This document shows positions 17,771-40,176 of a stretch of 64,000 nt of DNA, in pieces (within the stretch, counting starts at the first letter, position 1; the number at the start of each line of letters is the position of its first letter). The stretch is from an uncultured Cohaesibacter sp. (GTDB taxonomy: Bacteria > Pseudomonadota > Alphaproteobacteria > Rhizobiales > Cohaesibacteraceae): NCBI GenBank assembly GCA_963676485.1, contig OY781115.1. The stretch is one strand, 5' to 3'. Under the pieces are notes generated by a model, which saw nothing but the letters and a program-made list of their open reading frames with translations, was not told the DNA's origin and searched no databases. The position numbers were made by a program, and so were the translations under genes.

Positions 17771-18742
17771 CTAGGCTTTGATCAAGGCCTGGGCGAGAGC
17801 TTGATCAACGCAAAGATGCGTTACATAGCCACCGCGAATGGCAGCCAGCACAGCATTCTTGCGCCTGATGCTCCCGGCGATAAGCAATTTTTTGGGTACG
17901 CGATGCAATGCGTCAAAATCTATCGCAATGAGCCGTTTATCGGGCGCCACGCGAACGGGCTCGCCTTCGGCATTGATATAGCGGCAACAGATCACTCCTA
18001 CCGCACCGGCATCCCTTGCCGCTTCCAGCTCTTCAGGTGTCGTCATGTGCGCCCGAATCATATGGGTCTGGTCTTGCACATGACCGATGGAAGCAACATA
18101 CATGTCCAGATTGTTGAGCTTTTCCAGTTGCTGCTTGATTGTTGGTTCATTCCGCAACAATTCTGCGATTTCGTCATTGGACCCGACAGCAGGCGCATGC
18201 AATGTCGAACATTGTGCTGACAGCATATTGGCTATCTGGATCGCACAGCGTTCGGAGGCCGGAACAGTGTCTGATCTCATGGAGCCGATCATCTGCCGCA
18301 CAATGACATCTCTCTTGTGGACCTTCGGCATTTGCTCGGATACCGTGAAAACGGTTTCGCCCCATGCAACCCCGAGTGTTTCTCCCGGCGCGATAATTTC
18401 AGCCAATGCAATGGCGCCAACGCGGCCCAACTGGCGCAGCATTTCATTTCTTGTAACTTTAGATCCGTCGACACCACTGGTTGAGATGTAAACATCTGTT
18501 AGGCCATATTTCTCGCCCAAGTCCTGAGACAGAGACGATCCTGCGAGATATTTACCATCAACCAGAATGTCGACCACACGATTTTCGCGCGCCTCACGCA
18601 GCATATTGACGACGGTGGCGCGTGAAACATTCATACGTTTCGCAATGTCGTTTTGGGTCAAACCCTCCCCATAATAGAGGAGGGCCACATTTGCGAGCGT
18701 TGATTCTTTGTTAAAATATCGTGAGGTTTGGTCTTTGTTCAT
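17771..18742 (-). CDS. SorC/DeoR-family sugar-binding transcriptional regulator
   Basis: LLYYGEGLTQNDIAKRMNVSRATV HTH, LGVAWGET, LHAPA. Confidence 0.92.
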   Translation of the reverse strand: MNKDQTSRYFNKESTLANVALLYYGEGLTQNDIAKRMNVSRATVVNMLREARENRVVDILVDGKYLAGSSLSQDLGEKYGLTDVYISTSGVDGSKVTRNEMLRQLGRVGAIALAEIIAPGETLGVAWGETVFTVSEQMPKVHKRDVIVRQMIGSMRSDTVPASERCAIQIANMLSAQCSTLHAPAVGSNDEIAELLRNEPTIKQQLEKLNNLDMYVASIGHVQDQTHMIRAHMTTPEELEAARDAGAVGVICCRYINAEGEPVRVAPDKRLIAIDFDALHRVPKKLLIAGSIRRKNAVLAAIRGGYVTHLCVDQALAQALIKA

Positions 18743-18745
18743 GAG

Positions 18746-19411
18746 CTAGCTATTAACAGACTTCTGCCCTGCTTGGCCATAGTTCTTTCTGAACCATTCA
18801 AAGCAACGAACAATTTCTTCTTGTGGTAATTCCTCAACCTCACCGCGCAACATCGCCAGATGCGTGGTCATGGCCGCTTCCTCGAGATACATGGCCACGG
18901 ACGTGGCTTCCGTCGCGGACTTGCCCATCGTGAAAACGCCATGGGCCTTGACCAGAGCCGCATAGCCGCCTTGGGCCGCCTCAAGAATGGCCTCGCCTGT
19001 ATCCACTTCACCCGCAGTTGCGTAGCGTGAGCAGGGCACATCGCGGCCAATCATGTGGGTAATGGGAGTGAGTACCGCAGGGATACGCTCTCCACGCGCA
19101 GCAAAGCTGGTCGCATAGGGCGAATGGGTGTGCGTAATGCCGCCGATATCATCCCTGTTGCGATAGAGATAAAGATGAATGCCAGCATCAACCGATGGTT
19201 TCATTTCACCCTCGATGACGTTACCGTCGATGTCGATGACCACCATCGTGTCGGGTGTCAATTTCGCAAACTTCACGCCCGATGGCTTGATAACAATAAG
19301 CCCTGTCTCTTTGTCGCGGCCGGATACATTGCCCCCCGACCCGACGACAAGATTGTTGCGCGGTAATTCGTGGTTCTGATCGCAGACTTCTTCTTTAAGT
19401 GCTTCAAGCAT
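18746..19411 (-). CDS. araD: Class II aldolase/epimerase, L-ribulose-5-phosphate 4-epimerase-like
   Basis: GNVSGRD, IKPSG, KPSVD (Asp as in AraD rather than the FucA Glu), HTHS, HG, C-terminal YGQ; start MLEALK at 19411. Confidence 0.75.
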   Translation of the reverse strand: MLEALKEEVCDQNHELPRNNLVVGSGGNVSGRDKETGLIVIKPSGVKFAKLTPDTMVVIDIDGNVIEGEMKPSVDAGIHLYLYRNRDDIGGITHTHSPYATSFAARGERIPAVLTPITHMIGRDVPCSRYATAGEVDTGEAILEAAQGGYAALVKAHGVFTMGKSATEATSVAMYLEEAAMTTHLAMLRGEVEELPQEEIVRCFEWFRKNYGQAGQKSVNS

Positions 19412-20468
19412 CACTGGCCTCCTTTGGAATGCCGTGCGGGTAAACGAGAATTTTGAGGGATTTTTCGGCGTCGACCAACATGCGGAAAGCCTCGGCAGAA
19501 TCCGCGATGTCAAACCGGTGGGAAATGGCTTCGTCAGCCATGATCCGCCCCGCTTCGAGCAATCGGATGTAACTGTAGGTGTCCGTATGGTCGGAGGAAT
19601 AGCGCGAGGTGATGGTCACCTGATTGAAATAGGCCTTGTTGCCATCCTGCACCCAATCGGTGTCCGGAGCGAGCGGTGCGCCCAAATGCAGGCATCCGCC
19701 TTCTTCCACCAGACTGCCCGCAAGCTCCCATGCCGGCGGGAAAGGCGCGATCACAATAACCGTATCTGCAAGGCGTCCATTGTTGAGGGCTCTAAGGGCT
19801 GCAACCGGATCACTCTCTGTTTTTGGGTTGATTGTGTGCGTTGCCCCAAAGCGTTTGGCTTGTTCAAGGCGCCAGTCAGAGAAGTCCAGCGCAATCACCT
19901 TGCCCGCACCAAATAGCGGGGCCATATGCACAAAGCCCTGTCCCATGAAGCCGGCTCCAACGACTGCCACTGTGTCGCCGGGCTGAATGTTGCACACTTT
20001 AAGGCCTGACATCACACAGGACCACGGCTCGATTGTCACCGCCGCCTCGGTCGAGATGCTGTCCGGCAGTTTGTGGGCATCCATCATTAGATGCTGAGCG
20101 GTAACGCGGTAATATTCGCAGACGCCGCCCGGATCGAGTTTGGTGGTTGAATAGAAAGGATCGCGCGTGAAATGGCCGCGCCGTGACCAATGGCTGTTCA
20201 CACGCCCCACATGGTGATTGATGAACAGACGATCCCCGATCGCGAAGTCTGTCACATTGGCTCCCACTTCCACCACTTCGCCAATTGGCTCATGTCCGAG
20301 CACCTTGGGCTTGGATTTCTTGTACCAGGACATAGCCTCGCCGCCACACAATCCGCAGACCAGTGTCTTGAGAAGAACCTCATCGGGTCCGATTTCCGGG
20401 ATTGGCCGCTCTTCAAGGCGAATGTCGTCAATCGCATAATAGACAGCGGCTTTCATCATGTTGCTCAT
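19404..20468 (-). CDS. Zn-dependent (MDR) polyol dehydrogenase, iditol-dehydrogenase-like
   Basis: CGLCGGE, GHEPIG, EPWSC, GAGFMG, ALD; start MSNMMK at 20468. Confidence 0.85.
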   Translation of the reverse strand: MSNMMKAAVYYAIDDIRLEERPIPEIGPDEVLLKTLVCGLCGGEAMSWYKKSKPKVLGHEPIGEVVEVGANVTDFAIGDRLFINHHVGRVNSHWSRRGHFTRDPFYSTTKLDPGGVCEYYRVTAQHLMMDAHKLPDSISTEAAVTIEPWSCVMSGLKVCNIQPGDTVAVVGAGFMGQGFVHMAPLFGAGKVIALDFSDWRLEQAKRFGATHTINPKTESDPVAALRALNNGRLADTVIVIAPFPPAWELAGSLVEEGGCLHLGAPLAPDTDWVQDGNKAYFNQVTITSRYSSDHTDTYSYIRLLEAGRIMADEAISHRFDIADSAEAFRMLVDAEKSLKILVYPHGIPKEASDA

Positions 20469-21979
20469 AGTTCGTCTTTCATCTGTTTTAGCTGCTTTGA
20501 CAGAAGTCGGGCATTTTCTGAGAGAAGCTTGTAGCGTTTGAAAATCTTGCAATAGGCTGCGTGTGCCTCGGCGTTCGGTTCATAGCGCTGGACTTTCTCT
20601 TCGCGCTTGACCAAAGACATGACGTCGCCCAGTCCTGCTGCAGCCGCTCCGATGCAGGCAGCCCCCCAGAGCCCCTGATCGGAGGCTTCAGAGACAATAA
20701 TAGGCACGCCAATCACATCGCTGATGATCTGGCACCAAACGGGGTTTTTCGACCCTCCGCCAGTCAGTTGAACAGGTTCGCTCGGCAGGCCCCCTTCCAT
20801 CTCAAAACAGTGACGCAGGCTCATTGCGCCTCCCTCCAAAACGGCTCGCCCCATGTCAGCTTTTGTGCTTCTTGAGGTTAAGCCTTGAAAGGAGGCGGTC
20901 ACGTTAGGAGAGACGAAAGGGGCACGCTCACCATTCAAATAGGGCAGGAACGTTACGCCATTTGCGCCTACGGGGACTTTGGTTACAAGTTCGTTGAGTT
21001 TGGCCGCCACTTCGCCGGGCGTATCGCCACCAAGGCTCAGTGGATGCAGCTCCGTAAACCAGTTAAACGCCGACGCTCCGGTTGTGGGCGCCAAAATTCT
21101 GATGATCACATCCGATGTGGCATGCAGCGCGCTGGCACCCACGGGCTGGTCGTGTGTTTCAATATGGTCTGTTAAAATGTTGACAACGGCGGTCGTACCC
21201 ATGATCATCATGGTCTGGCCGGGTTGGTCCATCCCCATCCCGACAATCATCGCAGTAAGATCCAATGTCGGCGTGGAAACCGGCAAACCTTCCGGCAGAC
21301 CTGTTAAGCGGGCGGTCTCGGCGGTCAAGGTACCCAACGGAGTTGTTGCCCGTTGCGGCTCAAGCAAATGCTGCTGGATGTCGGAGCAGTCAAGGGCGTC
21401 TGCAACGTCGGAACTGTAAGTGCGTGTAGAGAAATCAATGAACGGTATGGAAGCGTTCGAGAAATCGGTTCCTGCCTGACCGGTCAAGTTCAAACCGATC
21501 CAGTCGCCGCAGGTGAAAATCGTTGCGATTTTGCTGACGATTTCCGGTTTATTTTGCTTCAACCAGCGCCATAGCGCACCAGAAGTGCCAGGCCATAAGG
21601 ACGTGTGGCAGGCCCGACCAACAGCGGCGGCTTTTCCAGATGTCGCGAGTTGTTCGACATCTGCTGATGCGCGCGTGTCGTTCCAGAGCATGGCAGGACC
21701 CACGGGCTTGCCTGCCTCATCAACGGCCCAAAGCCCATCGCCCTGAGCGCTGATACCCAGCGAGACAGGAACAAAGTCATTGATTTTGCTCGCAATGGAT
21801 TTCAATGCGTCCAAAACCACGGAAAGGACCGCATTCATGTCCTGCTCAGATTTGCCTTCGCGTCCTGTTACATCCGGTGCAGATTTCTCCACCATTGCCA
21901 CTATCTGACCGGTCGAATCATACGCAGCGGCCTTGATCGAGGTTGTCCCAATATCAAGGCCAAGTCTCACAGCTGTCAT
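20465..21979 (-). CDS. FGGY-family carbohydrate kinase (erythritol kinase/L-xylulose kinase-like)
   Basis: GLDIGTTSIKA, SAQGDG, MLWNDTR, FLPYLNGER, LTGGGSKN; GGAGG RBS before MTAVRL at 21979. Confidence 0.88.
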   Translation of the reverse strand: MTAVRLGLDIGTTSIKAAAYDSTGQIVAMVEKSAPDVTGREGKSEQDMNAVLSVVLDALKSIASKINDFVPVSLGISAQGDGLWAVDEAGKPVGPAMLWNDTRASADVEQLATSGKAAAVGRACHTSLWPGTSGALWRWLKQNKPEIVSKIATIFTCGDWIGLNLTGQAGTDFSNASIPFIDFSTRTYSSDVADALDCSDIQQHLLEPQRATTPLGTLTAETARLTGLPEGLPVSTPTLDLTAMIVGMGMDQPGQTMMIMGTTAVVNILTDHIETHDQPVGASALHATSDVIIRILAPTTGASAFNWFTELHPLSLGGDTPGEVAAKLNELVTKVPVGANGVTFLPYLNGERAPFVSPNVTASFQGLTSRSTKADMGRAVLEGGAMSLRHCFEMEGGLPSEPVQLTGGGSKNPVWCQIISDVIGVPIIVSEASDQGLWGAACIGAAAAGLGDVMSLVKREEKVQRYEPNAEAHAAYCKIFKRYKLLSENARLLSKQLKQMKDEL

Positions 21980-22042
21980 ATAAGTACCTCCCGGACAGCA
22001 AATTATCGAGTTCTTAGATAATACAAATGACAAATAATCGAT

Positions 22043-22101: not shown

Positions 22102-22192
22102 ATAGAGCAATGTAGTTCACTTTTAAGGCAGGGTCTAGCATCTGGGAGGTTGGAGGATGCTGCCTGAATTAGAATCCGAAGGGGAGGATAGA

Positions 22193-23161
22193 ATGAAACT
22201 CAAGCTAATCACTTTGGTATCTGCGGCAGCGATGCTGTTTGCAGGTTCCGCAAATGCTGAAGATTTGAGTCTTGCAGGAAAGCGCATCGGCATTGCCGTT
22301 GTCGGCACACAGCATTTCTGGGATCGTGAAGCGTTCAATGGTGCCGTTTCCACCGTCGAGAAACTCGGTGGTGAAGCTGTCCCGGTCGATGGTGGCCGCG
22401 ACAACCAGGTGCATGCCGACAATCACGACATTTTGCTTACCAACAAAGTGGATGCTGTCATCTCCATTCTGGGTGATGCGGCTGTAGAACCCAAATTCAA
22501 GGCACTTACAGAAGCTGGTATTCCGGTCTTTACCGTTGATCACCCATCGCAATATTCCGTGAACAACACCACATCCGACAACTACTATATGGGAACAACC
22601 ATTGGACGCTTCATGGCCGATGCCATTGGTGGCAAGGGCAAGGTTGCTGTTTTCAATGCGTTCGAGAAATCTCTGCGCATTTGCGGCATCCGCGTAGGGC
22701 TGTGGAAGTATGTTCTTCAGGATTATCCGGAAATCGAAATCATTCAGCCAGAGCTTGCTGAAGCCTATGCAAATGCGCCTGAAGATGCGCGTAAGAAAAC
22801 CCTTGATTTGCTGAGCCAATATCCAGAAGGCACACTTGATGTCATCCATGTTGGCTGCTGGGACCAACCCGCCATTGGTGTGGTTCAGGCACTTGAAGAA
22901 ACCGGCCGGACCGATGTTCTGGTAACAGCGTTGGATGGTGGCCCGGATACTCTGGAAATCATGGCGGAAGACGGCAGCCCATTCGTTGCCAACGTTGCGC
23001 AGCAGCCAAACAAGATTGGTGCAACCGCTGCGAAAAATGTTGCTCGTTACTTTGCTGGCGAAACCCTGCTTCCTCAGACATATGTCGACGTTGTTCCTAT
23101 CAACGGACAGGACGGGGCCAAGAAAGCTTACGAAGAACTGGGCTACGGCACACTCGACTAA
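22193..23161 (+). CDS. CUT2 sugar ABC substrate-binding protein (RbsB-like fold)
   Basis: Signal peptide MKLKLITLVSAAAMLFAGSANA; two-lobed PBP1-type sequence. Alternative start 22157. Confidence 0.88.
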   Translation: MKLKLITLVSAAAMLFAGSANAEDLSLAGKRIGIAVVGTQHFWDREAFNGAVSTVEKLGGEAVPVDGGRDNQVHADNHDILLTNKVDAVISILGDAAVEPKFKALTEAGIPVFTVDHPSQYSVNNTTSDNYYMGTTIGRFMADAIGGKGKVAVFNAFEKSLRICGIRVGLWKYVLQDYPEIEIIQPELAEAYANAPEDARKKTLDLLSQYPEGTLDVIHVGCWDQPAIGVVQALEETGRTDVLVTALDGGPDTLEIMAEDGSPFVANVAQQPNKIGATAAKNVARYFAGETLLPQTYVDVVPINGQDGAKKAYEELGYGTLD

Positions 23162-23247
23162 GCGTCATTCCTTCTTGATATAAAATATCGGCGGCTGGTT
23201 GCTATCGGCTGCCGATGACCAGAATATCCATATGGGAGGATTAGGTC

Positions 23248-24774
23248 GTGTCTGATTTCGCTCTTGAGATGCGAAACATCACCAAAGAATTTCCCGGTGT
23301 TCGCGCGCTTGATCAAGCGAGCTTGTCCATCAAGCCCGGTGAAATTCACGGTCTCGTCGGAGAAAATGGCGCCGGCAAATCTACAATCATCAAGGTGCTT
23401 GCCGGTGTCTATAAGCCCGAAGCGGGACACGTGGATGTTTTTGGCAAAGCCCTGCCACAGGGGTTTGACCCAACAGCTGTCCATGATGCGGGGGTGCGGT
23501 TCATCCATCAGGAACTGCATTTGGTGCCATATTTTACAGTTGCCGAATCCGTGTTCATGGCGCAGGAGAAATCCGATTGGAAAGGGCTTAAGTCCTCAGA
23601 TATGCGCAAGAAGACCGAAGAGTTTCTTCGCGAGAAACTTGCGGTTTCAATATCCGGCAAGCGTCTGGTTCGGGATCTGAGCACTGCTGAGCGCAAGCTC
23701 GTCCAGATTGCCCGCGCACTCATTGATGATGAGGCCAAGATCGTGGTCTTTGATGAACCGACGGCACCACTCGCAAGTGGCGAAGTCGAGACATTGATGA
23801 ATGCGATCGCCCAGCTGAAAGAATCGGGTATATCGATTCTTTATGTCTCCCATTATCTCGATGAGATTACCGATATTTGCGATCGTGTGACTGTCTTTCG
23901 CCAAGGCAAGAATGTTGCTGTCTTTGACGAAATTTCCAAGTCGAGCGGTCAAGAGCTGGTCTCTGCCATGGTTGGCCGTGATTTGGGCTCGCTTTATCCG
24001 GAAAGCAACAGAATTCCGGGAAGTCCCGTGCTGGAATTGAAAGAATTCGGCGATGGTGACAACTTCCGAAACGTCAATCTGTGTGCACACCGGGGGCAGA
24101 TTCTGGGAATTGCAGGTCTGATCGGCTCTGGCCGTCAAGAACTGATCGATTGCATTTATGGCCTGAGAAGCGCCAATGAAGGCAAGATGTTCCTCAATGG
24201 CTCCCAGATTTCAATTCGCAACGCAGCGCAAGCTGTGAAAAATGGTGTTGTCTTGGTTCCAAGGGACAGAAGGCAGGACGGTCTGGTTTTGCCTATGACA
24301 GTCACCGAAAATGTGACATTGGCAACCTTGGACCAGGTTTCCTCTTTTGGTCTTGAAAACCGGACTTCGTCCAAGGCCTCTGCCCATAAGCAGATCAAGG
24401 ATCTGGACATCCGGACACCATCCGCTGAGACCGTGACGCGTTTGCTCAGCGGCGGCAACCAGCAGAAGGTCGTTCTGGGCCGTTGGTTGGCCAAGGACGC
24501 AAAAGTATTCATTCTCGATGAACCAACTGTCGGTGTCGATGTTGGGGCACGCGTCGAGATTTACCAATTGATCGAGCAATTGGCAGCCAATGGAACAACA
24601 GTCATTGTGTCGTCTTCCGATCCGGCAGAACTGATCGGTATCTGTGATCGGATCGCTGTCTTGATGCGTGGTGAAATAACCCACGAGGTTGAAACCGATA
24701 ATTTGACGGTTGATCGGCTGGTTGCAATTACGACAGGTGCAGAAAAGAGGGAGGATCTCGCAAATGCAAGCTAA
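23248..24774 (+). CDS. CUT2 sugar ABC ATPase (RbsA-like)
   Basis: GENGAGKS, DEPTA, LSGGNQQKV. Confidence 0.93.
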   Translation: MSDFALEMRNITKEFPGVRALDQASLSIKPGEIHGLVGENGAGKSTIIKVLAGVYKPEAGHVDVFGKALPQGFDPTAVHDAGVRFIHQELHLVPYFTVAESVFMAQEKSDWKGLKSSDMRKKTEEFLREKLAVSISGKRLVRDLSTAERKLVQIARALIDDEAKIVVFDEPTAPLASGEVETLMNAIAQLKESGISILYVSHYLDEITDICDRVTVFRQGKNVAVFDEISKSSGQELVSAMVGRDLGSLYPESNRIPGSPVLELKEFGDGDNFRNVNLCAHRGQILGIAGLIGSGRQELIDCIYGLRSANEGKMFLNGSQISIRNAAQAVKNGVVLVPRDRRQDGLVLPMTVTENVTLATLDQVSSFGLENRTSSKASAHKQIKDLDIRTPSAETVTRLLSGGNQQKVVLGRWLAKDAKVFILDEPTVGVDVGARVEIYQLIEQLAANGTTVIVSSSDPAELIGICDRIAVLMRGEITHEVETDNLTVDRLVAITTGAEKREDLANAS

Positions 24775-25741
24775 TGCGATCAGAGGAAATATCCTCGGCG
24801 AGGTCATCGGTGCAGCGCCCGTAATGATCTTTGCGGTGCTTCTGATTTACATCGGAATGAATGCGCCAAACTTCTTGACGCTGATCAACCTCAAGCTGAT
24901 TCTGATGCAGAGTCTGCCAATCGTGCTGGTTTGTGTCGGCCTTTCGGCCGTTGTCATGGCGGGCGGCGATGATGCGGTCTCTGGCGGTATTGATCTTTCC
25001 ATTCCTGCAACATGTGTTTTGTGTGCAGGGATCATAGCGAGCACGATTACGACTGGTACACCGCTTATTCTGGCGGCACTCTATGCATTGGTCGCAGCCC
25101 TGATCGTTGGATCAATCAATGCGTTTCTTGTCACCCGCGTTGGCATGACCCCTCTGTTGACATCGCTGTCCATGTTTGTGGCCGTTGTCGGGGTTAACAA
25201 GGTTGTCACCCAAAGTCGCCGCATTAACGTCAACAACGAAACCATCCTCTCCTTGCGCGATGGATCTCTCCTTGGCGTGCCACTGGGCATTTGGGTTGTC
25301 GGTCTGGTTGTTCTGGTTGGCTATCAGTTGATGCACCGAACCAAGTGGGGGCTCAACATGCAGGCGGTTGGTGGAAGTCGGGATGCGGCAGAAATTTCTG
25401 GCCTCAACACCAATCGCCTGTTTGCCCAGTCCTTCGTTATTGCAGCGGTCCTTGGGTTCATAACCAGCTTCTTTGTGATCGCCAGAGGCTCGGGCATTTC
25501 ACCCGGCGTGCAAGACAATCTGATGCTGGAAATGGTGCTTGCCACATTCCTGGGCGCCGCTTTCTCTCCGCGCAGGGTCGTGACGATGTGGGGCGCTGTT
25601 CTGGGGGCTGTTCTCGTCGCAGCCATTTCGATCGGCTTCAAGTCGATGGGCGTGAATGTCTTCTGGACCGGCCTCATCAAAGGGTCAATGATCGTTGTTG
25701 TCGTTGCAATGGGAGCCATTTCCCAGAGGGTACAACGATGA
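24764..25741 (+). CDS. CUT2 sugar ABC permease
   Basis: GGIDLS, AVGGSRDAAEISG; start MQANA at 24764. Confidence 0.9.
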   Translation: MQANAIRGNILGEVIGAAPVMIFAVLLIYIGMNAPNFLTLINLKLILMQSLPIVLVCVGLSAVVMAGGDDAVSGGIDLSIPATCVLCAGIIASTITTGTPLILAALYALVAALIVGSINAFLVTRVGMTPLLTSLSMFVAVVGVNKVVTQSRRINVNNETILSLRDGSLLGVPLGIWVVGLVVLVGYQLMHRTKWGLNMQAVGGSRDAAEISGLNTNRLFAQSFVIAAVLGFITSFFVIARGSGISPGVQDNLMLEMVLATFLGAAFSPRRVVTMWGAVLGAVLVAAISIGFKSMGVNVFWTGLIKGSMIVVVVAMGAISQRVQR

Positions 25742-26727
25742 GTATTTCTTCCATTCCAGGCAAGGGGAATAAAGTGAACTTTCCGAGTCTAAAAAGCACC
25801 TTTGTAAGATATGGCTTTGTTGTCGTCTTCGTGTGTTTCTTCCTGTTCTTTGCCGCATGGAACCCGGTGTTTGTGCAGGCACAGAACCTGACCAATATCT
25901 TTGAAGCATCATCGATCTTGTTGATCCTGGCGCTGGGGATGACTTTGGTTGTTGCAACCGGCGGCATTGATCTTTCGGTCGGGATTGCCCTCGACTTCGG
26001 AGCAGCATTCTCGGTGGTCGCCATGAAATCCTACGGGATGGACTGGTGGAGTGCTTCGATGATCGGCATTGCTGGCGGAAGCCTCGTGGGCATGTTGAAC
26101 GCCGCGCTTGTTGTTGGATTGAAGATCAGTCCATTTTTGGCAACTCTGAGCACATTCTTTATCGGCTCGTCCGTTCAGCGCATTTTCACCAATGGTGGCG
26201 GCCCCATCTCTTACCGAAGGATGCCGATTGAATATCGCAATCTGGCGCAAGGCGAGATCTATGGGATTCCGACGGAAATTGTCATTGCAGCCGTGGTGGC
26301 GATTATCTACTTCATCATTCTTGAACGGTCCATTTGGGGTCGACAGATCCATGCGATGGGCATGCAGAGATCAGCTTCCATCGTTGCCGGTCTACGCGTG
26401 AACAAGCTTCTGATCATTTGCTTTATCGCTGCGTCAGCCACATGCGCCATTGCGGGTTTGCTCGCTGCGTCCAATCTTAGAATGTTCACGCCACTGGCAG
26501 GCTTTGCCTATCTTCTCGATGCGATTGCTGCAGTCTTTATCGGAGCTGCCCTTCATCCACGCGGCAGGCCCAATATACCGGGCACTGTGGCTGGGGTGCT
26601 TTTCCTGGGAATGGTTGCCAATGGCCTGAATTTGATGGGGTTGAACTTCAACACCAAGGACGCCCTCTCTGGGATCATCCTTGTCTCGGCTCTTGCACTG
26701 GCCGTTGCACAAAGAAAGATGCGCTGA
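25738..26727 (+). CDS. CUT2 sugar ABC permease (second)
   Basis: GGIDLSVG, LLDAIAAVFIGA; ATGA overlap with the previous gene. Confidence 0.9.
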   Translation: MSISSIPGKGNKVNFPSLKSTFVRYGFVVVFVCFFLFFAAWNPVFVQAQNLTNIFEASSILLILALGMTLVVATGGIDLSVGIALDFGAAFSVVAMKSYGMDWWSASMIGIAGGSLVGMLNAALVVGLKISPFLATLSTFFIGSSVQRIFTNGGGPISYRRMPIEYRNLAQGEIYGIPTEIVIAAVVAIIYFIILERSIWGRQIHAMGMQRSASIVAGLRVNKLLIICFIAASATCAIAGLLAASNLRMFTPLAGFAYLLDAIAAVFIGAALHPRGRPNIPGTVAGVLFLGMVANGLNLMGLNFNTKDALSGIILVSALALAVAQRKMR

Positions 26728-26793
26728 CTATCAAGAGATGGGGCGGCCTCTTGCACCGCCTCGTTTGACCTACACCGCTTTTCTCCCAAAACT

Positions 26794-26825
26794 AAACCCC
26801 CGGACATTGTCCGAGGGTTTTTTTT
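26794..26825. terminator. Bidirectional intrinsic terminator
   Basis: AAACCC-C-CGGACA-T-TGTCCG-A-GGGTTT followed by a T-run, between convergent genes. Confidence 0.75.
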
Positions 26826-26861
26826 AAGGTTGATACCATTATCGCAATGGAGGATGCCGGT

Positions 26862-29126
26862 TCAGGCCGAGAGGATTGGCGGTTTGTCTATCGTTAAGGC
26901 AGGCAGCGCGCCCTGCCACTTCTCAACGCGCACCAATGCGGTATGAGCGATGTTCCCTTGGGAGAGACTGGAGCATCCCTTGTCCTTGGTCAGAACATTC
27001 GGATTGCCGTGCACCTCTATCGCACTGCCATTCACGATTTGAGGGTCGAACCAGGCCCCCGTGGCAAGCGACACACAATCGCGCCGGATATCATCGCAAT
27101 ATCTCAATCCCGCAAGGCAGGAGCCACGTTCATTGAATATCCGCACAATTGATCCGTTCTCCAAGCCTCTGGCTCTTGCTGTCTCGGAATGGATATAAGC
27201 TGGCTCTCTCCCCTCGATCTTGTCGGCAAGCGCTTCAGACCCTCTGTCATTTTGTGAGTGAAGGCGCGTGTCCGGCTGCCCTGATATCAAGTGAAGTTCG
27301 TCTTCTTCTGCACTCAACAGGCTCTCACATGGCTCCAGCCAAGACGGATGGGGTGGGCAATCTGGAAGCGCCATGGCTTCAATTGCTTCATTGAAAAGCG
27401 TGATTTTGCCGCTCTCTGTTTTGAGGGGGTGGGTTTCAGGGGCAGCGACAAACGCTTCAAGAGCGATACGCTGGGCCTTAGAGTTTGGCACATCAAACCG
27501 CCCCTTTTCGCGGAATACCTCAAAGGAGGGAAGCTCAAACCCTTCTGTTATCGCCACGCGCTGGCAATCTGTCCAGATTGTTTGTAGCCATCCGTCTTGA
27601 TCGCGCCCTTCTGTAAACTCTTCTGCGAATCCCAATTCCTTTGCCAGCAAGCTGAAAATCTCAAAGTCGCTCTTTGACTGCCCGAAAGGCTCAAAAAGCT
27701 GCGACATGAACAGTAATGTGCTGTCACGCCGGTTGATCATGATATCCTCGCGTTCCAAAGGGGTGGAGGCCGGAAAAACAATGTCGGCTCTTCTTGCCGT
27801 TGCGGTCCAGCTATGATCGTTGACAATAATCGTTTCCGGCTTGGCCCAGCCGGTTTCAAGCCTGTTCAGGTCCTGGTGATGATGGAACGGATTGCCGCCA
27901 GCCCACCAGACGAGCTTGATGTCGGGATAGGTTCTGTCCTGCCCGTTATATTTGTATGATCCTCCCGGATTGAGCAGCATATCCGCAATACGGGCCACCG
28001 GAATGTAATCAGAGACGGGATTGCGGCCTTGTGAAACGGATGGCCATGATATCAAGCGGGTAGGGCGGCCCACAGGCGTGGTTGATCCATAGCCAAAAGC
28101 AAAACCTGTTCCGGTTTTACCGATCTGGCCTAATGCACAGGCCAATGCGAGCCCCGCCCAAAGAGGTTGCTCGCCGTGATCACCGCGTTGAATCCCCCAT
28201 GACATGGCGATCATGCTCTTCTTGGACGCAAGTTGCGTGGCCAGCATTCTGATTTGTGTGGCGGGTAAATCACAAATGGACGCAGCCCATTCCGGTGTCT
28301 TGGCTTGCCCGTCTTTGCCATGCCCCAGAATATAGCTTTTGAACGCGTCCCAGCCGCTGGTGCAGCGCGCAAGGAAGTCTTCATCTGCCTTCCCTGTCTC
28401 AACAAGTACAAAGATCAAGGCGAGCAGCAAGGCTGTGTCCGTACCCGGTCGGATCGAAAGCCATTCAGATCCTGCAAGATCGCTTTTCTTTGGCGAGACA
28501 TTCACCAATTGGACATGCCGGTCTTGCAATGTCTTGAGCCAACCGGGAATTTCATGTTTGGACGTGCCTGCCGAGGCAATCTGGGCCGTTCGGCCTGAAA
28601 TGCCGCCAAAAACGAGCAACAGCTCGCAATGTTCTGCGACCAATGGCAACGAGGTCATTTCATCCTGAAAGGCACGGTTGCTCAGGCCCAGTATGTGCGG
28701 AAACAGAACTTCAGCGGCTGCGTGGGAATAGGTTTCCCGGGCGCCCACAAACCCTCCAGCCATATTCAGGAACCGCCGCAATTGGCTCTGGGCATGGTGA
28801 AAACGCCCGGCACTGGACCATCCGTAGGACCCGCCGAAAATCGCGCCATTGCCATAGTCTTCCTTGATACGCCGCACTTCTCGCGCTGCGAGTGAGACGG
28901 CTTGGTCCCAGCTGACTTCGATATATTTGTCGTTGCAGCGATTTTTGCCGCCGTCACCCTCCAGCCAACCCGCGCGTATGGCGGGTTGGCGGATGCGGCT
29001 ATTCTGATCGCGTGCAGCACTCTGCCAACCTTTCCCGATACGGGAAGGGGATGGGTCATCTGCAATAGGCCGCAAGCTCTTGTCGTCAATTTCGTAGGCG
29101 CCCCAATGGGCTGCGGTATATTTCAT
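26862..29126 (-). CDS. bisC: Cytoplasmic Mo-bisPGD S/N-oxide reductase (BisC/TorZ/DMSO reductase clade)
   Basis: AAHWG start, GSYGW (DMSOR Tyr/Trp), TYS Mo-ligand Ser, GNPFHH, RLHSQ, HGNPNVLT; no Tat signal and no Fe-S motif. Confidence 0.85.
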   Translation of the reverse strand: MKYTAAHWGAYEIDDKSLRPIADDPSPSRIGKGWQSAARDQNSRIRQPAIRAGWLEGDGGKNRCNDKYIEVSWDQAVSLAAREVRRIKEDYGNGAIFGGSYGWSSAGRFHHAQSQLRRFLNMAGGFVGARETYSHAAAEVLFPHILGLSNRAFQDEMTSLPLVAEHCELLLVFGGISGRTAQIASAGTSKHEIPGWLKTLQDRHVQLVNVSPKKSDLAGSEWLSIRPGTDTALLLALIFVLVETGKADEDFLARCTSGWDAFKSYILGHGKDGQAKTPEWAASICDLPATQIRMLATQLASKKSMIAMSWGIQRGDHGEQPLWAGLALACALGQIGKTGTGFAFGYGSTTPVGRPTRLISWPSVSQGRNPVSDYIPVARIADMLLNPGGSYKYNGQDRTYPDIKLVWWAGGNPFHHHQDLNRLETGWAKPETIIVNDHSWTATARRADIVFPASTPLEREDIMINRRDSTLLFMSQLFEPFGQSKSDFEIFSLLAKELGFAEEFTEGRDQDGWLQTIWTDCQRVAITEGFELPSFEVFREKGRFDVPNSKAQRIALEAFVAAPETHPLKTESGKITLFNEAIEAMALPDCPPHPSWLEPCESLLSAEEDELHLISGQPDTRLHSQNDRGSEALADKIEGREPAYIHSETARARGLENGSIVRIFNERGSCLAGLRYCDDIRRDCVSLATGAWFDPQIVNGSAIEVHGNPNVLTKDKGCSSLSQGNIAHTALVRVEKWQGALPALTIDKPPILSA

Positions 29127-29129
29127 AGA

Positions 29130-30203
29130 TCACAAATGCGGATCAAGGATCACCTTGATTTGCACTTCCCCTGGGTTTGGTTTACGCGAAAGGGCGGTTT
29201 CAAATTCCTCGAGCGGATAGCGATGGGTGATGCAGGCGTCACCATCAATCAGGCCACGCGCCATCAGATCCAGAGCCGTGGCATAGGTGAAGGGGGCGAG
29301 ATGACCGCCAAGAATATTCAGCTCCTTGAACTCGCCGAATATGTTGAGATCAACATTTACCTTGTCCTTATAGACCCCAAAGACAACAAGCGTGCCGCGC
29401 TTGCGGATCAGTTCCAGCCCTCTGGTGAAGGCGGATGTCTGCCCTGATGCTTCCAGATAAACATCGGCCCCGCGTCCCCCTGTCAGATCCCCAATCGCCT
29501 GATCCAGCTTCGGATCATCGGGATGGAAAGCAAGATCGGCTCCGAGTGTTTTCGCCAGTTCGCGTTTGGCTTCCCCGGGATTGACCAGAATGAGCTTTCG
29601 AGGGGTTTTCAGGCGGGCTGCTTGCAGCATTCCCATGCCGATCGGCCCTGCACCGGATACGACCACCACATCCTGAAACTGGATGTTGGCCCGCTCCACG
29701 CCGTGGATTGCATTGGCCAGTGGCTCGGTAAAGCAAGCTGCGTCATTGGACAGACCATCGGGCACCTTGTGGACCACGCAATCGGCTGGATAGATCATGT
29801 AATCCGCCCAGGCGCCATTGAGCGTCGCGCCAAGCACATCCATCTTGTCGCTCAGATGATAGAGCCCGCGTTGACGGAAATAATCATTCCCATAGGTGAT
29901 GTTGAGCTCTGCGACGGCACGATCGCCGACTTTGACGGCGTGGCGCTCTCCGGCCCCCTCTCCAAGTTCGACCACTGTACCGGTGAATTCGTGGCCCGGT
30001 ATGAACGGGAATGGGAACTCCCAAGGGGCTGTGGCGTCATACATGGCGCGATCCGCAGCACATATGCCTGACGCATCGACTTTCACCAAAATCTCGCCCG
30101 GGCCGGGTTCGGGTACCGGTTGCTTTGTAGTCAGGCGATGCTGTCCACCAAATCCGTGACACTGCACAGCACGCATCATCTTCCCTGTCATTTGTTCCTC
30201 CAA
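29130..30203 (-). CDS. Zn-dependent polyol dehydrogenase, EltD (erythritol/L-threitol dehydrogenase)-like
   Basis: GICAAD, PGHEF, EPLA, GAGPIG, GADVYLE and KELNILGGHLAP resemble the EltD family. Confidence 0.82.
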   Translation of the reverse strand: MEEQMTGKMMRAVQCHGFGGQHRLTTKQPVPEPGPGEILVKVDASGICAADRAMYDATAPWEFPFPFIPGHEFTGTVVELGEGAGERHAVKVGDRAVAELNITYGNDYFRQRGLYHLSDKMDVLGATLNGAWADYMIYPADCVVHKVPDGLSNDAACFTEPLANAIHGVERANIQFQDVVVVSGAGPIGMGMLQAARLKTPRKLILVNPGEAKRELAKTLGADLAFHPDDPKLDQAIGDLTGGRGADVYLEASGQTSAFTRGLELIRKRGTLVVFGVYKDKVNVDLNIFGEFKELNILGGHLAPFTYATALDLMARGLIDGDACITHRYPLEEFETALSRKPNPGEVQIKVILDPHL

Positions 30204-30250
30204 AGGCTATTTCTGATCGATTTTTCGCTCGCACAAAAAATCCTTCTTGA

Positions 30251-30288
30251 TTTTTACATATGAATATAATATTGACAATTGTAAAATG
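30251..30288. promoter_or_regulatory. Second divergent promoter with TTTTTACATATG...TGTAAAA; same motif as 22043-22101
   Basis: TTTACATATG at 30253 is the exact reverse complement of CATATGTAAA at 22043; TTGACA at 30272. Confidence 0.55.
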
Positions 30289-30301
30289 AGAGGAGATTGC
30301 T

Positions 30302-31228
30302 ATGCGCAATGAAAAAACGACAGAAGAGGTTGCTCTCGGTATTCGTCGTCGGGTGTTTGAGCACACGATGCGAAACAACGGGGGGTATCTGTCTCAGGCT
30401 TGTTCGGCAGCCGAGCAATTGGCTTGGTTGTATAACGAGCAGCTCAATCTGGGGGCACCAACGCTTCCAGCCATCCCGAAACCCTTTGCCGGCGTACCGT
30501 CTGCTGACAATCCCGATTATCACACGGGTGCGGGCTATAATGGACCGGCGTCACCGGAGTTTGATCGTCTCTTTATTGCGCCAGCCCATTACGCGCTGGT
30601 TGCCTATGCCACGCTGATTGAGGTGGGGCGTATGGATGAAGAAGGCCTCAAGATGTTCAACAAGGATGGCTCCTCCGTCGAGATGATCGGAGCGGAGCAT
30701 TCTCCGGGCATGGAAGTGCATAACGGCACGCTAGGGGTTGGTTTCTCCACCGCTGCCGGTCTTGCCTATGGCCGTCGCCTGAAGGGCGAAACCGGCAAGA
30801 CATGGGTCTTCATGTCCGATGGCGAAGTGGAAGAAGGCCAGACCTGGGAAGCGGTGCAGGCCGCGCGTTTTCATCGCATCGACAATCTGTGCGCCATCAT
30901 GGATGTGAATGAACAGCAATGCGATGGAGCCATGTCATCGGTGATGGAAGTGGGCGATATCCGCCAAAAACTCATCGATTTCGGTGCAGCATGCGTTGAA
31001 GTGGATGGTCATGATCTCGACGCCATCCGTCAGGCTTCCGAGGAACCCCATGAAGGACGTCCCCTGATCATCATGGCCCGGACCTCTCCGTTCAAAGCCA
31101 TGAATATTCTGGAAGAGCGGTTCCCACGTCTCCACTATGTGCGCTTCAAATCCGAAGAAGAGCGCGCCCGTTTCAACGTCTCGATTGCGGCAGACCTTGG
31201 TGTCGAGCCCGTCGATTACAGCCATTAA
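30302..31228 (+). CDS. Split transketolase, N-terminal (ThDP pyrophosphate-binding) subunit, atypical
   Basis: SDGEVEEGQTWEA...DVN ThDP motif, GTLGVG, VDGHD; GGYLSQACS where GH is usual. Confidence 0.88.
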   Translation: MRNEKTTEEVALGIRRRVFEHTMRNNGGYLSQACSAAEQLAWLYNEQLNLGAPTLPAIPKPFAGVPSADNPDYHTGAGYNGPASPEFDRLFIAPAHYALVAYATLIEVGRMDEEGLKMFNKDGSSVEMIGAEHSPGMEVHNGTLGVGFSTAAGLAYGRRLKGETGKTWVFMSDGEVEEGQTWEAVQAARFHRIDNLCAIMDVNEQQCDGAMSSVMEVGDIRQKLIDFGAACVEVDGHDLDAIRQASEEPHEGRPLIIMARTSPFKAMNILEERFPRLHYVRFKSEEERARFNVSIAADLGVEPVDYSH

Positions 31229-31240
31229 GGAGGCCTCATC

Positions 31241-32245
31241 ATGGTTGAAATGGTTAGTCGCCCCTATGCCCGCTCTTTCGAGAAATTCGCAGCCGGCAAT
31301 CCCGATATTCTGTGTCTGTCCGCCGATCTGACCTCATCCTGCGAGGTTGACGGCTTCCGGGATCGGCATCCGGATCAGTTTTTGAGCCTTGGCATGGCCG
31401 AGCAGAATATGCTCAGCTTTGCCGGTGGATTGGGCCTTGCTGGGTTCCGTCCCTTCATTCACACCTTTGGCGTCTTCATGTATCGCCGTCCCTATGACCA
31501 GTTGATGGCCTCCATTGCTTACCCCCGCAGAAAAGTACGGCTGATGGGCTTCTTGCCCGGGGTTACCACCCCCGGTGGGATGACCCATCAGTCGATTGAG
31601 GATATCTCGGTCATGCGCTCGATCCCCAATATGACCATATTGGAAACAGGCGACGCAACAGAGGTTGAATCCATTTGCGAGGCCGCCGACAGCATCGATG
31701 GACCGGTCTGGTGCCGGGTGCTGCGTGGCTCTGTGCCGCGTTTGTTCGATACCCCCATCAAGGTGGGTGAAATGCGTGTTCTGTCCGAAGGCGATGATAT
31801 TCTGGTTGTCACGGCAGGCATCACCACCGAAGAAGCCATGCGGGCGCGCTCTGCGCTCAAGGAGGCCGGGCTTTCCATCCGCCATCTGCATCTGCATACC
31901 ATCAAGCCGTTCGATGCCAAGGCATTGCTCGACCATATCGGTTCGGTCAAGCATGGGGTGATCACGCTGGAGAACCATGTCACCGAAGGCGGCATTGGCT
32001 CACTGGTTGCCGAGACCATGGCGGATGCCGGTGTTGGCAAGCGCCTTATTCGTCTGGGCCTCAAGGACACCTATGCCCATGGCGGATCACGGCCCTATCT
32101 GATGCGCTATTATGGTCTTGATGCCCTGGCACTCGTCAAGGGTATGGAAGATCTGATGGGGCAACAGTTCGGCATCACCGAAGATGACCTTGATACAGCC
32201 CGCGTCGAAGACGTTCACTCCCTCGTCAAGGCGGAGGCACTCTAA
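31241..32245 (+). CDS. Split transketolase, C-terminal (pyrimidine-binding) subunit, atypical
   Basis: SADL, GMAEQNM, THQ, IKPFD, ENH...GGIGS. Confidence 0.88.
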   Translation: MVEMVSRPYARSFEKFAAGNPDILCLSADLTSSCEVDGFRDRHPDQFLSLGMAEQNMLSFAGGLGLAGFRPFIHTFGVFMYRRPYDQLMASIAYPRRKVRLMGFLPGVTTPGGMTHQSIEDISVMRSIPNMTILETGDATEVESICEAADSIDGPVWCRVLRGSVPRLFDTPIKVGEMRVLSEGDDILVVTAGITTEEAMRARSALKEAGLSIRHLHLHTIKPFDAKALLDHIGSVKHGVITLENHVTEGGIGSLVAETMADAGVGKRLIRLGLKDTYAHGGSRPYLMRYYGLDALALVKGMEDLMGQQFGITEDDLDTARVEDVHSLVKAEAL

Positions 32246-32386: not shown

Positions 32387-33241
32387 CTAACTTAAGCCTT
32401 CAGTCATATGCAGCCCATAATGCACATTGCGTCCGAGTATTTCGGCAAACAGGAAAAGCAAAGCACAAATGAGGGTGACAAAAAGCCCCCCGCCAGCGGC
32501 AGTGAAAAGCAGCCAAAGCAAGCAGGCGGCGCACAGCAAGATAAACCGGACGGACATAAGGGCCTTATATGCAAGAAACACAGTATCCCCCGAGCGCAGG
32601 GCGGTTTTGATGTTGGGGAGGGCTCTTGCTTGCAAGACTGTGGTCACTGCGGAGACGGCAATTGCGCAAATGGTCATGACCAAAGGTCCGATTTTCAAAA
32701 CCCCGACGTCACTGCATCCGGTTGCCATAAACAAAATAGCCGCCATGATGCTGCCGCCGATAAGAATTGATAGGCTAAAGTGCAAGGGGGTGAAAATCGT
32801 ATTCCATGTTGGAACGGTGCGCAGCATGTAAAGCGCGACCATATTATACATGAAGGCCAAACTCAGCAGAAATGTAATGAAAAGGGCAATCGGCAAAAGG
32901 ACCGCAGGCAGGAAGGACACCTGCGACAAAAGCCAGCTCAAGCCTCCAAAGGCCGCCGAGGCACTTCCAAAAACGATTTCGTTGGAAAATGGCGACCGTC
33001 CAAAGCGGAAAATGGCATTCATACCGCGCAATGGCCTGCCAAGATGCAAACTGGCAATTCCGAAGGAGAGTCCAAGAGCGATCCATATCGCGAGCATTCC
33101 CGTCAGTAAGGAGCCTTTCTGGTCTGGCGTAAGATCAACCAGGGAGAGGGCGATCAGACACCACCAGAAGGCTCCTATTGCTGACTGCGCCAACACGGTG
33201 AAGACCATCAACGGCCATTCTTTCCAAACAATCATGGTCAT
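32387..33241 (-). CDS. dmsC: DMSO reductase membrane anchor subunit
   Basis: EWPLMVFTVLAQ, SLHLGRP, SPFSNEI, EILGRNVHYG; about 8 TM. Confidence 0.92.
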   Translation of the reverse strand: MTMIVWKEWPLMVFTVLAQSAIGAFWWCLIALSLVDLTPDQKGSLLTGMLAIWIALGLSFGIASLHLGRPLRGMNAIFRFGRSPFSNEIVFGSASAAFGGLSWLLSQVSFLPAVLLPIALFITFLLSLAFMYNMVALYMLRTVPTWNTIFTPLHFSLSILIGGSIMAAILFMATGCSDVGVLKIGPLVMTICAIAVSAVTTVLQARALPNIKTALRSGDTVFLAYKALMSVRFILLCAACLLWLLFTAAGGGLFVTLICALLFLFAEILGRNVHYGLHMTEGLS

Positions 33242-33858: not shown

Positions 33859-33867
33859 GTTCAGACC

Positions 33868-40124: not shown

Positions 40125-40176
40125 TTCAATTCCTCCCTAGAATTATGGATTGCAAGTTTAAAATAGGGCCAGTCTA

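Follow-up and report, generated by a model that had tools for sequence, protein, structure and literature searches.

The stretch of DNA analysed here (hereafter the window) comprises 64,000 nucleotides of contig OY781115.1 from an uncultured Cohaesibacter sp. (assembly GCA_963676485.1). At positions 30302-32245 it carries two adjacent open reading frames (ORFs), TK-N and TK-C, which an earlier note made from the letters of the sequence had described as a split transketolase with several replaced substrate-binding residues. These genes lie at the end of a 14.5 kb gene cluster (17771-32245) and encode the alpha and beta chains of an intact thiamine diphosphate (ThDP)-dependent enzyme of the transketolase fold. 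The enzyme belongs to a large, conserved and uncharacterised transketolase subfamily; it has a remodelled donor site and stands in an undescribed pathway context. The genes that accompany it across species suggest that the family is linked to methylthioribose recycling, as an undescribed step in sulfur-sugar salvage.

Both chains matched their Pfam domains above the gathering scores (Transketolase_N at 2e-16 for TK-N; Transket_pyr at 3e-23 and Transketolase_C at 1e-20 for TK-C), TK-N also gave a weak Pfam match to DXP_synthase_N (2e-4), and the 12-nucleotide spacer between the genes contains the Shine-Dalgarno sequence AAGGAGG. The nearest solved sequence is the split transketolase 6YAK/6YAJ (HMMER, 2.5e-32 for TK-N and 6.5e-53 for TK-C). 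The AlphaFold2 (AF2) model of the TK-N monomer, with a predicted local distance difference test score (pLDDT) of 86, had 6YAK as its top fold match (TM 0.74/0.81) and matched human, yeast and bacterial transketolases at probability 1.0; pLDDT was low in the loop equivalent to that of His100 (residues 121-140) and at residues 61-80. The latter fall within a family-specific insert of about 30 amino acids (residues ~48-81), placed after the first helix pair, which canonical split transketolases do not have. Every curated equivalog cutoff for transketolase and 1-deoxy-D-xylulose-5-phosphate (DXP) synthase was widely missed by both chains. The best transketolase equivalog in NCBIfam, NF004559 (cutoff 488), gave 143.7 bits for TK-N and 192.6 bits for TK-C, TIGR00232 (cutoff 682) gave 54 and 44 bits, and the dxs models TIGR00204/NF003933 (cutoff 466) gave 159 bits for TK-C.

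In the reaction intermediates of the Escherichia coli transketolase (2R8O/2R8P), the C1 hydroxyl is bound by His100 and His473, the C3 hydroxyl by His26 and His261 and the C4 hydroxyl by Asp469, and the phosphate is held by Arg358, Ser385, His461 and Arg520. In canonical transketolase, Asp469 also recognises the C2 hydroxyl of the acceptor (D-threo specificity). TK-N and TK-C were aligned pairwise with 6YAK/6YAJ using HMMER and, together with E. coli TktA and 30 relatives, using MAFFT; the residue-level mapping was taken from these sequence alignments and the AF2 model was used for the fold. The two alignments concurred on the residues that are replaced (Table 1) and kept. The earlier note, aligning by eye, had read GGY at His26, APAH in place of SKGH, no clear counterpart of His100 within EMIGAEH, FLPG at His461 and TPGGMTHQ around Asp469, and both alignments recovered each of these. 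His26 is Tyr29; His66, within the APAH motif, is itself retained as His96; Ile129 aligns with His100, and the nearby His133 is not conserved across the family; His461 is Leu105 (GFLPG); and Asp469 is Gly112, next to a one-residue deletion (TT-PGGMTHQ). Alignment to TktA, which had been put forward as the check on this reading, thus found the equivalents of His26, His100, His461 and Asp469 replaced rather than conserved.

The residues that the note had listed as kept were also found in place: the ThDP/Mg motif of TK-N (Asp155 as Asp173 in SDGE and Asn185 as Asn203 in DVN) and, in TK-C, the cofactor-activating Glu411 (Glu54), the histidine of THQ (His473, as His116) and the phosphate-site residues Ser385 (Ser33) and Arg520 (Arg162), with Arg7 as the probable counterpart of Arg358, offset by one alignment column. 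His261 (His278 of TK-N) and Phe434 and Phe437 (Phe76 and Phe79 of TK-C) are retained as well. Of the residues that mark a canonical transketolase, His26, His100 and Asp469 are therefore missing from TK-N/TK-C and His66, His261 and His473 are present; the cofactor and core catalytic residues are all intact in the family. The statement in the note that engineered H26Y and D469 variants shift or invert selectivity agrees with the published values: with propanal, the wild-type E. coli enzyme gives 58% enantiomeric excess (ee) (S) and H26Y 88% ee (R), and the selectivity of D469Y is reversed (PMC3657141).

A protein database search with the window enzyme returned 4228 matches. The best 120 of these 4228 were 82-100% identical to it, came from Rhodobacterales, Hyphomicrobiales/Rhizobiales (the nearest being a 99% identical protein of an uncultured Cohaesibacter) and a few Gammaproteobacteria, and were annotated as 'transketolase' or 'thiamine pyrophosphate-dependent enzyme'. 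Among the matches listed from a one-genome-per-species collection, a relative is encoded in at least 597 genomic stretches (597 of 600). Distant relatives were sought among representatives of 50%-identity clusters, where full-length proteins at 35-56% identity were found in Nitrospirota (fused, 661 amino acids), Gemmatimonadota and diatoms, all of them with GGY, a residue other than histidine at the His100 site, GFLPG, T-PGGxTHQ and the insert of about 30 residues. A census of loci was made on the best 80 orthologous species-level loci (one genome per species), with partner genes identified by tblastn. SDGE and DVN occur in all 80 loci, TTPGGMTHQ in 79, LHYVR in 79-80 and tyrosine at the His26 site in at least 72. 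The substitutions hold from Alphaproteobacteria through to Nitrospirota, Gemmatimonadota and diatoms and are therefore a family signature, in line with the note, to which the enzyme had not looked decayed; a pseudogene is ruled out by the intact ORFs, the fixed substitutions across phyla and the conserved cofactor residues.

Two further groups of proteins were seen. The family members P0146, P0148 and P0154 (about 300 amino acids) keep the N-terminal signature (GGY/GGF and the insert) and have lost the ThDP/Mg motif, with GDG changed to AAD, DAD or DEK and no asparagine; they are probably non-catalytic paralogues or partner subunits. P0169, P0172, P0190 and P0192 represent other split transketolase-like clades without the insert, which have tyrosine at His26 and no histidine at His100; these changes thus predate the insert-bearing family and extend beyond it.

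In 54 of the 80 loci, about two thirds of the species sampled and here termed type A, TK-N and TK-C are accompanied by the gene for a RuBisCO-like protein (RLP), the start of which mostly lies a few bases from the TK-C stop on the same strand. The transketolase pair is the gene neighbour of the RLP in 53 of these 54 loci, the exception being L012. Among the 53 loci with the RLP only, MtnA was found in 45, MtnK in 40, the binding protein of an ATP-binding cassette (ABC) importer in 40 and a bifunctional aldolase/short-chain dehydrogenase/reductase (SDR) in 31. The type-A locus of Ahrensia marina (L039) consists of a SorC regulator, a bifunctional class II aldolase/SDR, MtnA, MtnK, a three-gene ribose-type ABC importer, TK-N, TK-C and the RLP. 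Here MtnK scored 474 bits on TIGR01767 and MtnA 416 bits on TIGR00512, each above its cutoff (275 and 279, respectively). The best match of the RLP in the PDB was 3QFW, of 378 amino acids (9e-61), with MtnW enolases (2e-38) and Photo-type RLPs far behind; on the OiaX model it reached 60 bits, under the cutoff of 700. The entry 3QFW is an RLP structure (PMC13454268).

The cluster in the window represents a second arrangement, termed type B, in which a molybdenum (Mo) enzyme is encoded beside the transketolase genes (22 of the 80 loci). Its other genes encode a regulator, an AraD-like protein, a xylulokinase-like kinase, two dehydrogenases and a four-gene ribose-type ABC importer (Table 1); refined start codons are given for both permeases, the FGGY kinase and the AraD-like protein. 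The RLP, MtnA, MtnK, the type-A ABC binding protein and the aldolase/SDR were found in none of the 21 loci with the Mo enzyme only, and MtnK, MtnA and RLP genes are absent from the window cluster. The best PDB match of the Mo enzyme was the dimethyl sulfoxide (DMSO) reductase-family protein DorA of Rhodobacter (1EU1, 2e-168). Its motifs SYGW (residue 100) and TYSHAAA (residue 132) align with Tyr114/Trp116 and Ser147 of DorA, its domains are Molybdopterin and Molydop_binding alone, and it has neither an Fe-S domain nor a twin-arginine (Tat) leader. With these features, the Mo enzyme is therefore a BisC-like soluble S-/N-oxide reductase. About 11 of the 22 type-B loci have an orthologue of ADH1 (71-80% identity); the other tblastn matches (24-31%) fall on the ADH2 gene, which was found in 17 of the 80 loci at ~80% identity. 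The arrangement of the window cluster recurs in Martelella, and a form with a single dehydrogenase and an importer of the NMT1 type is found in Mameliella and in a genome labelled Microbulbifer. In this Rhodobacterales form of type B (L001/L005; Mameliella and the genome labelled Microbulbifer sp. S227A, positions 817-3418) a sulfatase and a formylglycine-generating enzyme adjoin the SorC regulator. Both are present in 7 of the 80 loci, and the compound taken up may perhaps derive from a sulfated precursor.

Table 1. Genes and replaced residues in the window (window numbering; residues given as E. coli TktA residue, then the residue of TK-N or TK-C)
Feature	Coordinates	Strand	Basis or remark
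TK-N, ThDP/PP-domain chain, 308 amino acids	30302..31228	+	Pfam Transketolase_N
TK-C, Pyr and C-terminal domain chain, 334 amino acids	31241..32245	+	Pfam Transket_pyr and Transketolase_C
His26, Tyr29 (GGY) of TK-N	30386-30388	+	both alignments
His100, Ile129 (EMIGAEH) of TK-N	30686-30688	+	both alignments
His461, Leu105 (GFLPG) of TK-C	31553-31555	+	both alignments
Glu468-Asp469, Pro111-Gly112 of TK-C, one-residue deletion (TT-PGGMTHQ)	31571-31576	+	both alignments
SorC/DeoR-type sugar-phosphate-sensing regulator	17771..18742	-	Pfam Sugar-bind, NCBIfam matches
Class II aldolase-family protein, AraD-like, nearest the L-ribulose-5-phosphate 4-epimerase subfamily	18746..19411	-	Pfam Aldolase_II; NF005123 244 bits, cutoff 251
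ADH2, second Zn-dependent dehydrogenase	19404..20468	-	17 of the 80 loci, ~80% identity
FGGY-family kinase, xylulokinase-like	20465..21979	-	Pfam FGGY_N/C; TIGR01312 XylB 281 bits, under cutoff 380
Periplasmic sugar-binding protein, RbsB-like, Peripla_BP_4	22193..23161	+	distinct from the binding protein of the MtnK/MtnA/RLP clusters
Sugar ABC ATPase, two ABC domains	23248..24774	+	Pfam ABC_tran x2
CUT2-type sugar ABC permease 1	24764..25741	+	Pfam BPD_transp_2
CUT2-type sugar ABC permease 2	25738..26727	+	Pfam BPD_transp_2
Cytoplasmic type-III DMSO-reductase-family molybdoenzyme (BisC/DorA-like S-/N-oxide reductase)	26862..29126	-	TIGR00509 bisC_fam 815 bits
ADH1, Zn-dependent medium-chain dehydrogenase, polyol/threonine-dehydrogenase-like, divergent from TK-N	29130..30203	-	Pfam ADH_N and ADH_zinc_N; best NCBIfam match Tdh, 200 bits, under cutoff
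DmsC anchor	32387-33241	-	DmsABC-type operon
DmsABC 4Fe-4S subunit	33238-33858	-	DmsABC-type operon
DmsABC Mo subunit with Fe4S4 domain	33868-36273	-	DmsABC-type operon

The transketolases of the two arrangements cannot be told apart. Mean identity between types A and B (0.77 for TK-N and 0.80 for TK-C) is about equal to that within a type, and no alignment column discriminates the two. In a metagenome-assembled genome of Ensifer sp. (L012, JBNKZZ010000004.1, positions 317-20916) both modules flank a single TK-N/TK-C pair, in the order FGGY kinase, ABC importer, Mo enzyme, ADH1, then TK-N and TK-C, then RLP, ABC importer, MtnK and MtnA, with the RLP ~1.2 kb from the transketolase pair and on the opposite strand. 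In L041 the RLP stands together with the kinase, dehydrogenase and AraD-like genes of type B. Inseparable enzymes and mixed loci together indicate that a single enzyme, and presumably a single substrate, is the meeting point of both modules.

The pairing with the RLP extends to single polypeptides. The diatom proteins P0276, P0122, P0127 and P0130 join a RuBisCO_large domain, TK-N and TK-C in one chain with the same substitutions; P0276, from transcriptomes of Conticribra (Thalassiosira) weissflogii, is complete at 1130 amino acids. The RLP domain of the diatoms, too, finds its best PDB match in 3QFW (3e-60), and it shares 39% identity with the operon RLP of bacteria. An unrelated bacterium (L091, GCA_018436095.1, positions 3808-15284) encodes a 41% identical TK-N/TK-C in an operon-like block with a complete galactitol-type phosphotransferase system, a Zn-dehydrogenase, a 434-amino-acid RLP with an N-terminal RuBisCO domain and a HAD phosphatase, and this is a further case of an RLP paired with the transketolase, served by a different uptake system. 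In Nitrospirota (L009) the gene of the fused transketolase immediately follows that of MsrA, an RLP is encoded at a distance of 5.5 kb, and pyridoxal phosphate enzymes of Cys/Met metabolism are close by. A 45% identical relative on a Gemmatimonadota-type contig (L008, positions 2951-16845) has as neighbours an aldo-keto reductase, a luciferase-like monooxygenase, a PfkB kinase, a Zn-dehydrogenase, a TIM-barrel sugar epimerase/isomerase, a SorC regulator and a CUT2 importer; the logic is that of type B (reductase, dehydrogenase, kinase, epimerase), realised through non-homologous enzymes.

To our knowledge, few RLP reactions have been established, and the cupin methylsulfurylase of two purple bacteria is the sole known fate of 1-methylthio-xylulose-5-phosphate. 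RLPs of the DeepYkr type convert 5-methylthioribulose-1-phosphate, the product of MtnA, into 1-methylthio-xylulose-5-phosphate and 1-methylthio-ribulose-5-phosphate in a ratio of 3:1, and in Rhodospirillum rubrum and R. palustris a cupin encoded beside the RLP then strips off the methylthio group (PMC5893883). A review of July 2026 still cites the cupin alone for this step (PMC13474568). A full-text literature search, with incomplete coverage and hence leaving a prior description possible, found no transketolase tied to this RLP clade or to 1-methylthio-xylulose-5-phosphate.

Judging from gene context and residue logic, we consider the chances about even that the enzyme cleaves the RLP product, a 1-methylthio-pentulose-5-phosphate. 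The most parsimonious order of steps would be MtnK, MtnA, RLP and then the transketolase-like enzyme, which would stand in for the cupin methylsulfurylase of the R. rubrum 5'-methylthioadenosine (MTA)-isoprenoid shunt. Its donor would be 1-methylthio-D-xylulose-5-phosphate and/or 1-methylthio-D-ribulose-5-phosphate, and cleavage between C2 and C3 would release glyceraldehyde-3-phosphate and leave CH3S-CH2-C(OH)=ThDP on the cofactor. Protonation could release this fragment as 2-(methylthio)acetaldehyde; alternatively, methanethiol could be lost by beta-elimination to give acetyl-ThDP. The replacement of His100 by isoleucine and of His26 by tyrosine would be understandable because C1 would bear SCH3 or H instead of OH, and the retained Arg358, Ser385 and Arg520 fit a 5-phosphate on the substrate. 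The earlier note had supposed either different stereochemistry or a deoxy or substituted acceptor, and this reading is partly supported: a deoxy or substituted substrate does fit the genomic evidence, which points mainly to an altered donor ketose because of the conserved link to MtnK, MtnA and an RLP nearest 3QFW.

Type B would most likely arrive at the same intermediate by a path that bypasses the RLP and starts from a pentose or pentitol, taken up by the importer, that bears a methylthio or methylsulfinyl group. The Mo enzyme would reduce the S-oxide (the methylsulfinyl form), a dehydrogenase would reduce 5-methylthio-D-ribose to the pentitol, the second dehydrogenase would oxidise the pentitol at C4 to 1-methylthio-L-ribulose, the xylulokinase-like kinase would phosphorylate C5, and the AraD-like protein would epimerise C4 to the D-xylulose configuration, giving 1-methylthio-D-xylulose-5-phosphate. 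The scheme is chemically coherent, and the enzymes that it calls for are exactly those encoded, namely two dehydrogenases, a kinase and an AraD-like protein. Since the type-B binding protein is unrelated to that of type A at the census threshold (0 of 21), the imported compound is not simply methylthioribose. Taken as a whole, the proposal is of a new RLP-transketolase route for the use of methylthioribose or MTA as carbon and sulfur source, widespread in marine Alphaproteobacteria and fused in diatoms, that would yield glyceraldehyde-3-phosphate plus either methanethiol and acetyl units or methylthioacetaldehyde, with the window variant as an RLP-independent branch in which a Mo S-oxide reductase serves oxidised or reduced methylthio sugars. 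We put forward this complete route tentatively, as somewhat short of probable. Diatoms produce much MTA in the synthesis of long-chain polyamines.

Several points weigh against the proposed cleavage of a methylthio-pentulose phosphate. The loss of Asp469 and His461 is not obviously needed for a substrate with a C4 hydroxyl and a 5-phosphate; it may, as a speculation, relax the stereochemical reading so that both RLP products serve. The pentitol route of type B is a paper scheme, and the transketolase of the window is tied to the pathway through orthology with type-A loci and not through its own neighbours. The bifunctional aldolase/SDR of 31 of the 53 type-A loci could cleave methylthioribulose-1-phosphate alone. 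The clade of the operon RLP is read from 3QFW, a putative DeepYkr-clade protein. The adjacency of MsrA is a single case and could be coincidence. The distant relatives L008, L092 and L093 sit in other contexts, and the wider family is therefore functionally mixed.

The same gene context admits other substrates and steps. One is a 1-deoxy version of the pathway, for the 5-deoxyribose formed as a by-product of radical S-adenosylmethionine (SAM) enzymes, in which the enzyme would cleave or form DXP in the manner of a reversed DXP synthase; methylthio and deoxy compounds might perhaps both be handled. MtnK/MtnA-type enzymes and the dihydroxyacetone phosphate shunt act on both methylthio- and deoxy-ribose (PMC13474568, PMC6079011), the dxs score of TK-C (159 bits) is near its best transketolase score (193 bits), and a methyl group at C1 suits the lost ligands of the C1 hydroxyl as well as SCH3 does. 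However, the S-oxide reductase of type B and the MsrA beside the Nitrospirota homologue would be purposeless for a sulfur-free sugar, MtnK and MtnA clear the equivalog cutoffs for methylthioribose by a wide margin, and the DXP synthase cutoffs are missed, so that we regard this version as unlikely. We judge similarly a role elsewhere in the methylthioribose pathway, either on 5-methylthioribulose-1-phosphate before or instead of the RLP, or as a carboligase moving a two-carbon methylthio unit to an acceptor. The context does tie the transketolase to the pathway rather than to a given step, the type-A locus L021 has MtnK, MtnA and the transketolase with no RLP in the recovered portion of the contig, and a hydrophobic distal end that carries no phosphate would be in keeping with the absence of His461 and Asp469. 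Yet no partner recurs as constantly as the RLP, which is found in 53 of the 53 loci with the RLP only, mostly begins at the TK-C stop and in diatoms forms part of the same chain, while the retained equivalents of Arg358, Ser385 and Arg520 argue for a distal phosphate and the xylulokinase-like kinase and AraD-like protein of type B indicate 5-phosphates.

If the window were read by itself, with its sugar ABC importer, polyol-type dehydrogenases, xylulokinase-like kinase and AraD-like protein, the enzyme could be taken for an ordinary pentose-phosphate transketolase in a pentitol or pentose cluster (L-arabitol or ribitol to L-ribulose, L-ribulose-5-phosphate and D-xylulose-5-phosphate), with residue changes due to neutral drift. 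This is improbable, given four substrate ligands replaced and fixed across phyla, scores far under all transketolase equivalog cutoffs, a Mo S-oxide reductase left unexplained, and orthologues that mostly adjoin MtnK, MtnA and the RLP rather than pentitol genes. Still less is to be said for one of the specialised split transketolases already described, AptA/AptB for apulose-4-phosphate in apiose catabolism or SqwG/SqwH for 6-deoxy-6-sulfofructose, which share the split architecture and a catabolic cluster with a sugar importer, a reductase or dehydrogenase and a kinase; in 2018, Carter et al. are said to have placed RLPs in apiose pathways as well. The operon RLP, with its 60 bits on OiaX, matches 3QFW far better, as it does the MtnW-type enolases; its partner genes reach equivalog level as MtnK and MtnA; and no sulfoquinovosidase, sulfo-sugar isomerase, apiose isomerase or sulfoacetaldehyde reductase was found among the genes of the window cluster or of L039. 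SqwGH is a close homologue of the pentose-phosphate transketolase and transfers a normal ketol unit to glyceraldehyde-3-phosphate (PMC9594981), which implies intact ligands for the C1 hydroxyl. The gene contexts argue against both systems, which are here set apart by context and published description.

Three other assignments were considered and rejected. A sulfoquinovose (SQ) pathway had been suggested by the split transketolase and by the sulfatase and NMT1-type ABC importer of Mameliella; there are no SQ genes and the arginine ligands of the phosphate are kept. An autoinducer-2 (lsr-like) pathway had been suggested by the CUT2 importer, FGGY kinase and SorC regulator; LsrK and LsrR scored far under their cutoffs and below XylB and DeoR. 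Arsenosugars or other S-/N-oxide nutrients were pure speculation and were dropped.

Beyond the transketolase genes, a DmsABC-type operon lies on the minus strand directly downstream of TK-C (32387-36273), the called N-terminus of its DmsA showing no obvious twin-arginine motif. With the Mo enzyme on one side and DmsABC on the other, two different DMSO-reductase-family enzymes flank the transketolase genes; DmsABC is absent from the Martelella and Mameliella clusters and is therefore probably outside the conserved module. A methyl-accepting chemotaxis protein (36776-39097, plus strand; dCache_3, HAMP and a C-terminal CZB zinc-binding domain) sits between this operon and a second CUT2 sugar ABC importer (39177-42800). 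On the other side, a 398-amino-acid protein with a Fic/DOC domain (16228-17424, minus strand) adjoins the SorC regulator just past the cluster boundary. Two long ORFs gave no Pfam match, one of 832 amino acids (48452-50950, plus strand) and one of 386 amino acids (55474-56634, minus strand). The former follows GH88 and KduI genes in an apparent unsaturated-uronate or glycosaminoglycan utilisation locus with TRAP transporters, and may be an unclassified polysaccharide lyase.

The new points of this analysis are the conserved coupling of the transketolase to MtnK, MtnA and the RLP, the diatom fusion and the dedicated S-oxide reductase in the window. If the proposed cleavage of methylthio-pentulose phosphates holds, the salvage of methionine and SAM by-products would gain a new branch, with a partner of the transketolase type in diatoms and in several hundred species or more. 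A 'transketolase' annotation that is very common among marine genomes would then have a function, and the marine sulfur cycle would probably have a further source of methanethiol or methylthio-C2 compounds. The family also offers a natural transketolase scaffold with H26Y-like and D469X-like changes, until now obtained by directed evolution only, and an undescribed sugar metabolite bearing a sulfoxide is suggested by the constant association with a cytoplasmic enzyme of the DMSO-reductase type.

The closest structural counterpart, the split transketolase of Carboxydothermus hydrogenoformans (6YAK/6YAJ), resembles the window enzyme in having adjacent genes for the PP-domain chain and the Pyr and C-terminal domain chain, and shares with it the ThDP motif and the equivalents of Glu411, His66, His261 and His473. 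It has, in contrast, the canonical SGH, SKGH, GHP, THAG and GEDGASHQ, whereas in the window enzyme Tyr stands for His26, Ile for His100, Leu for His461 and Gly for Asp469, one residue is deleted and the 30-residue insert is present; the C. hydrogenoformans enzyme is an ordinary transketolase (PMC7661550). The E. coli TktA variants H26Y and D469X have the same fold and catalytic core, and the natural combination of Tyr26 with a non-acidic residue at 469 mimics those variants that accept non-hydroxylated aldehydes and have reversed selectivity (PMC3657141). The changes in the window differ in being natural and combined, in being joined by the loss of His100 and His461, and in standing in a dedicated context outside the pentose-phosphate pathway. 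To DXP synthase the likeness lies in the near score of TK-C (159 against 193 bits) and in a substrate or product that would be a 1-substituted (1-deoxy) xylulose-5-phosphate, and the difference in the split architecture and in a score far under the dxs cutoff of 466.

In phosphoketolase and in sulfoacetaldehyde acetyltransferase (Xsc), the C2 carbanion/enamine expels water or sulfite to give acetyl-ThDP. These enzymes are kin at the level of the ThDP fold and provide a precedent for the expulsion of methanethiol from a methylthio C2-ThDP adduct, although such an elimination is speculative here. The cupin methylsulfurylase occupies the position that is proposed for the transketolase-like enzyme, as consumer of the RLP product encoded beside a DeepYkr-type RLP (PMC5893883); it is nevertheless unrelated in fold and chemistry, the cupin using glutathione and leaving DXP, where the ThDP enzyme would break the C2-C3 bond. 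With the MTA-isoprenoid shunt, finally, most type-A loci have in common that MtnA and MtnK are encoded together with the RLP, unlike the window, in which these genes are absent.

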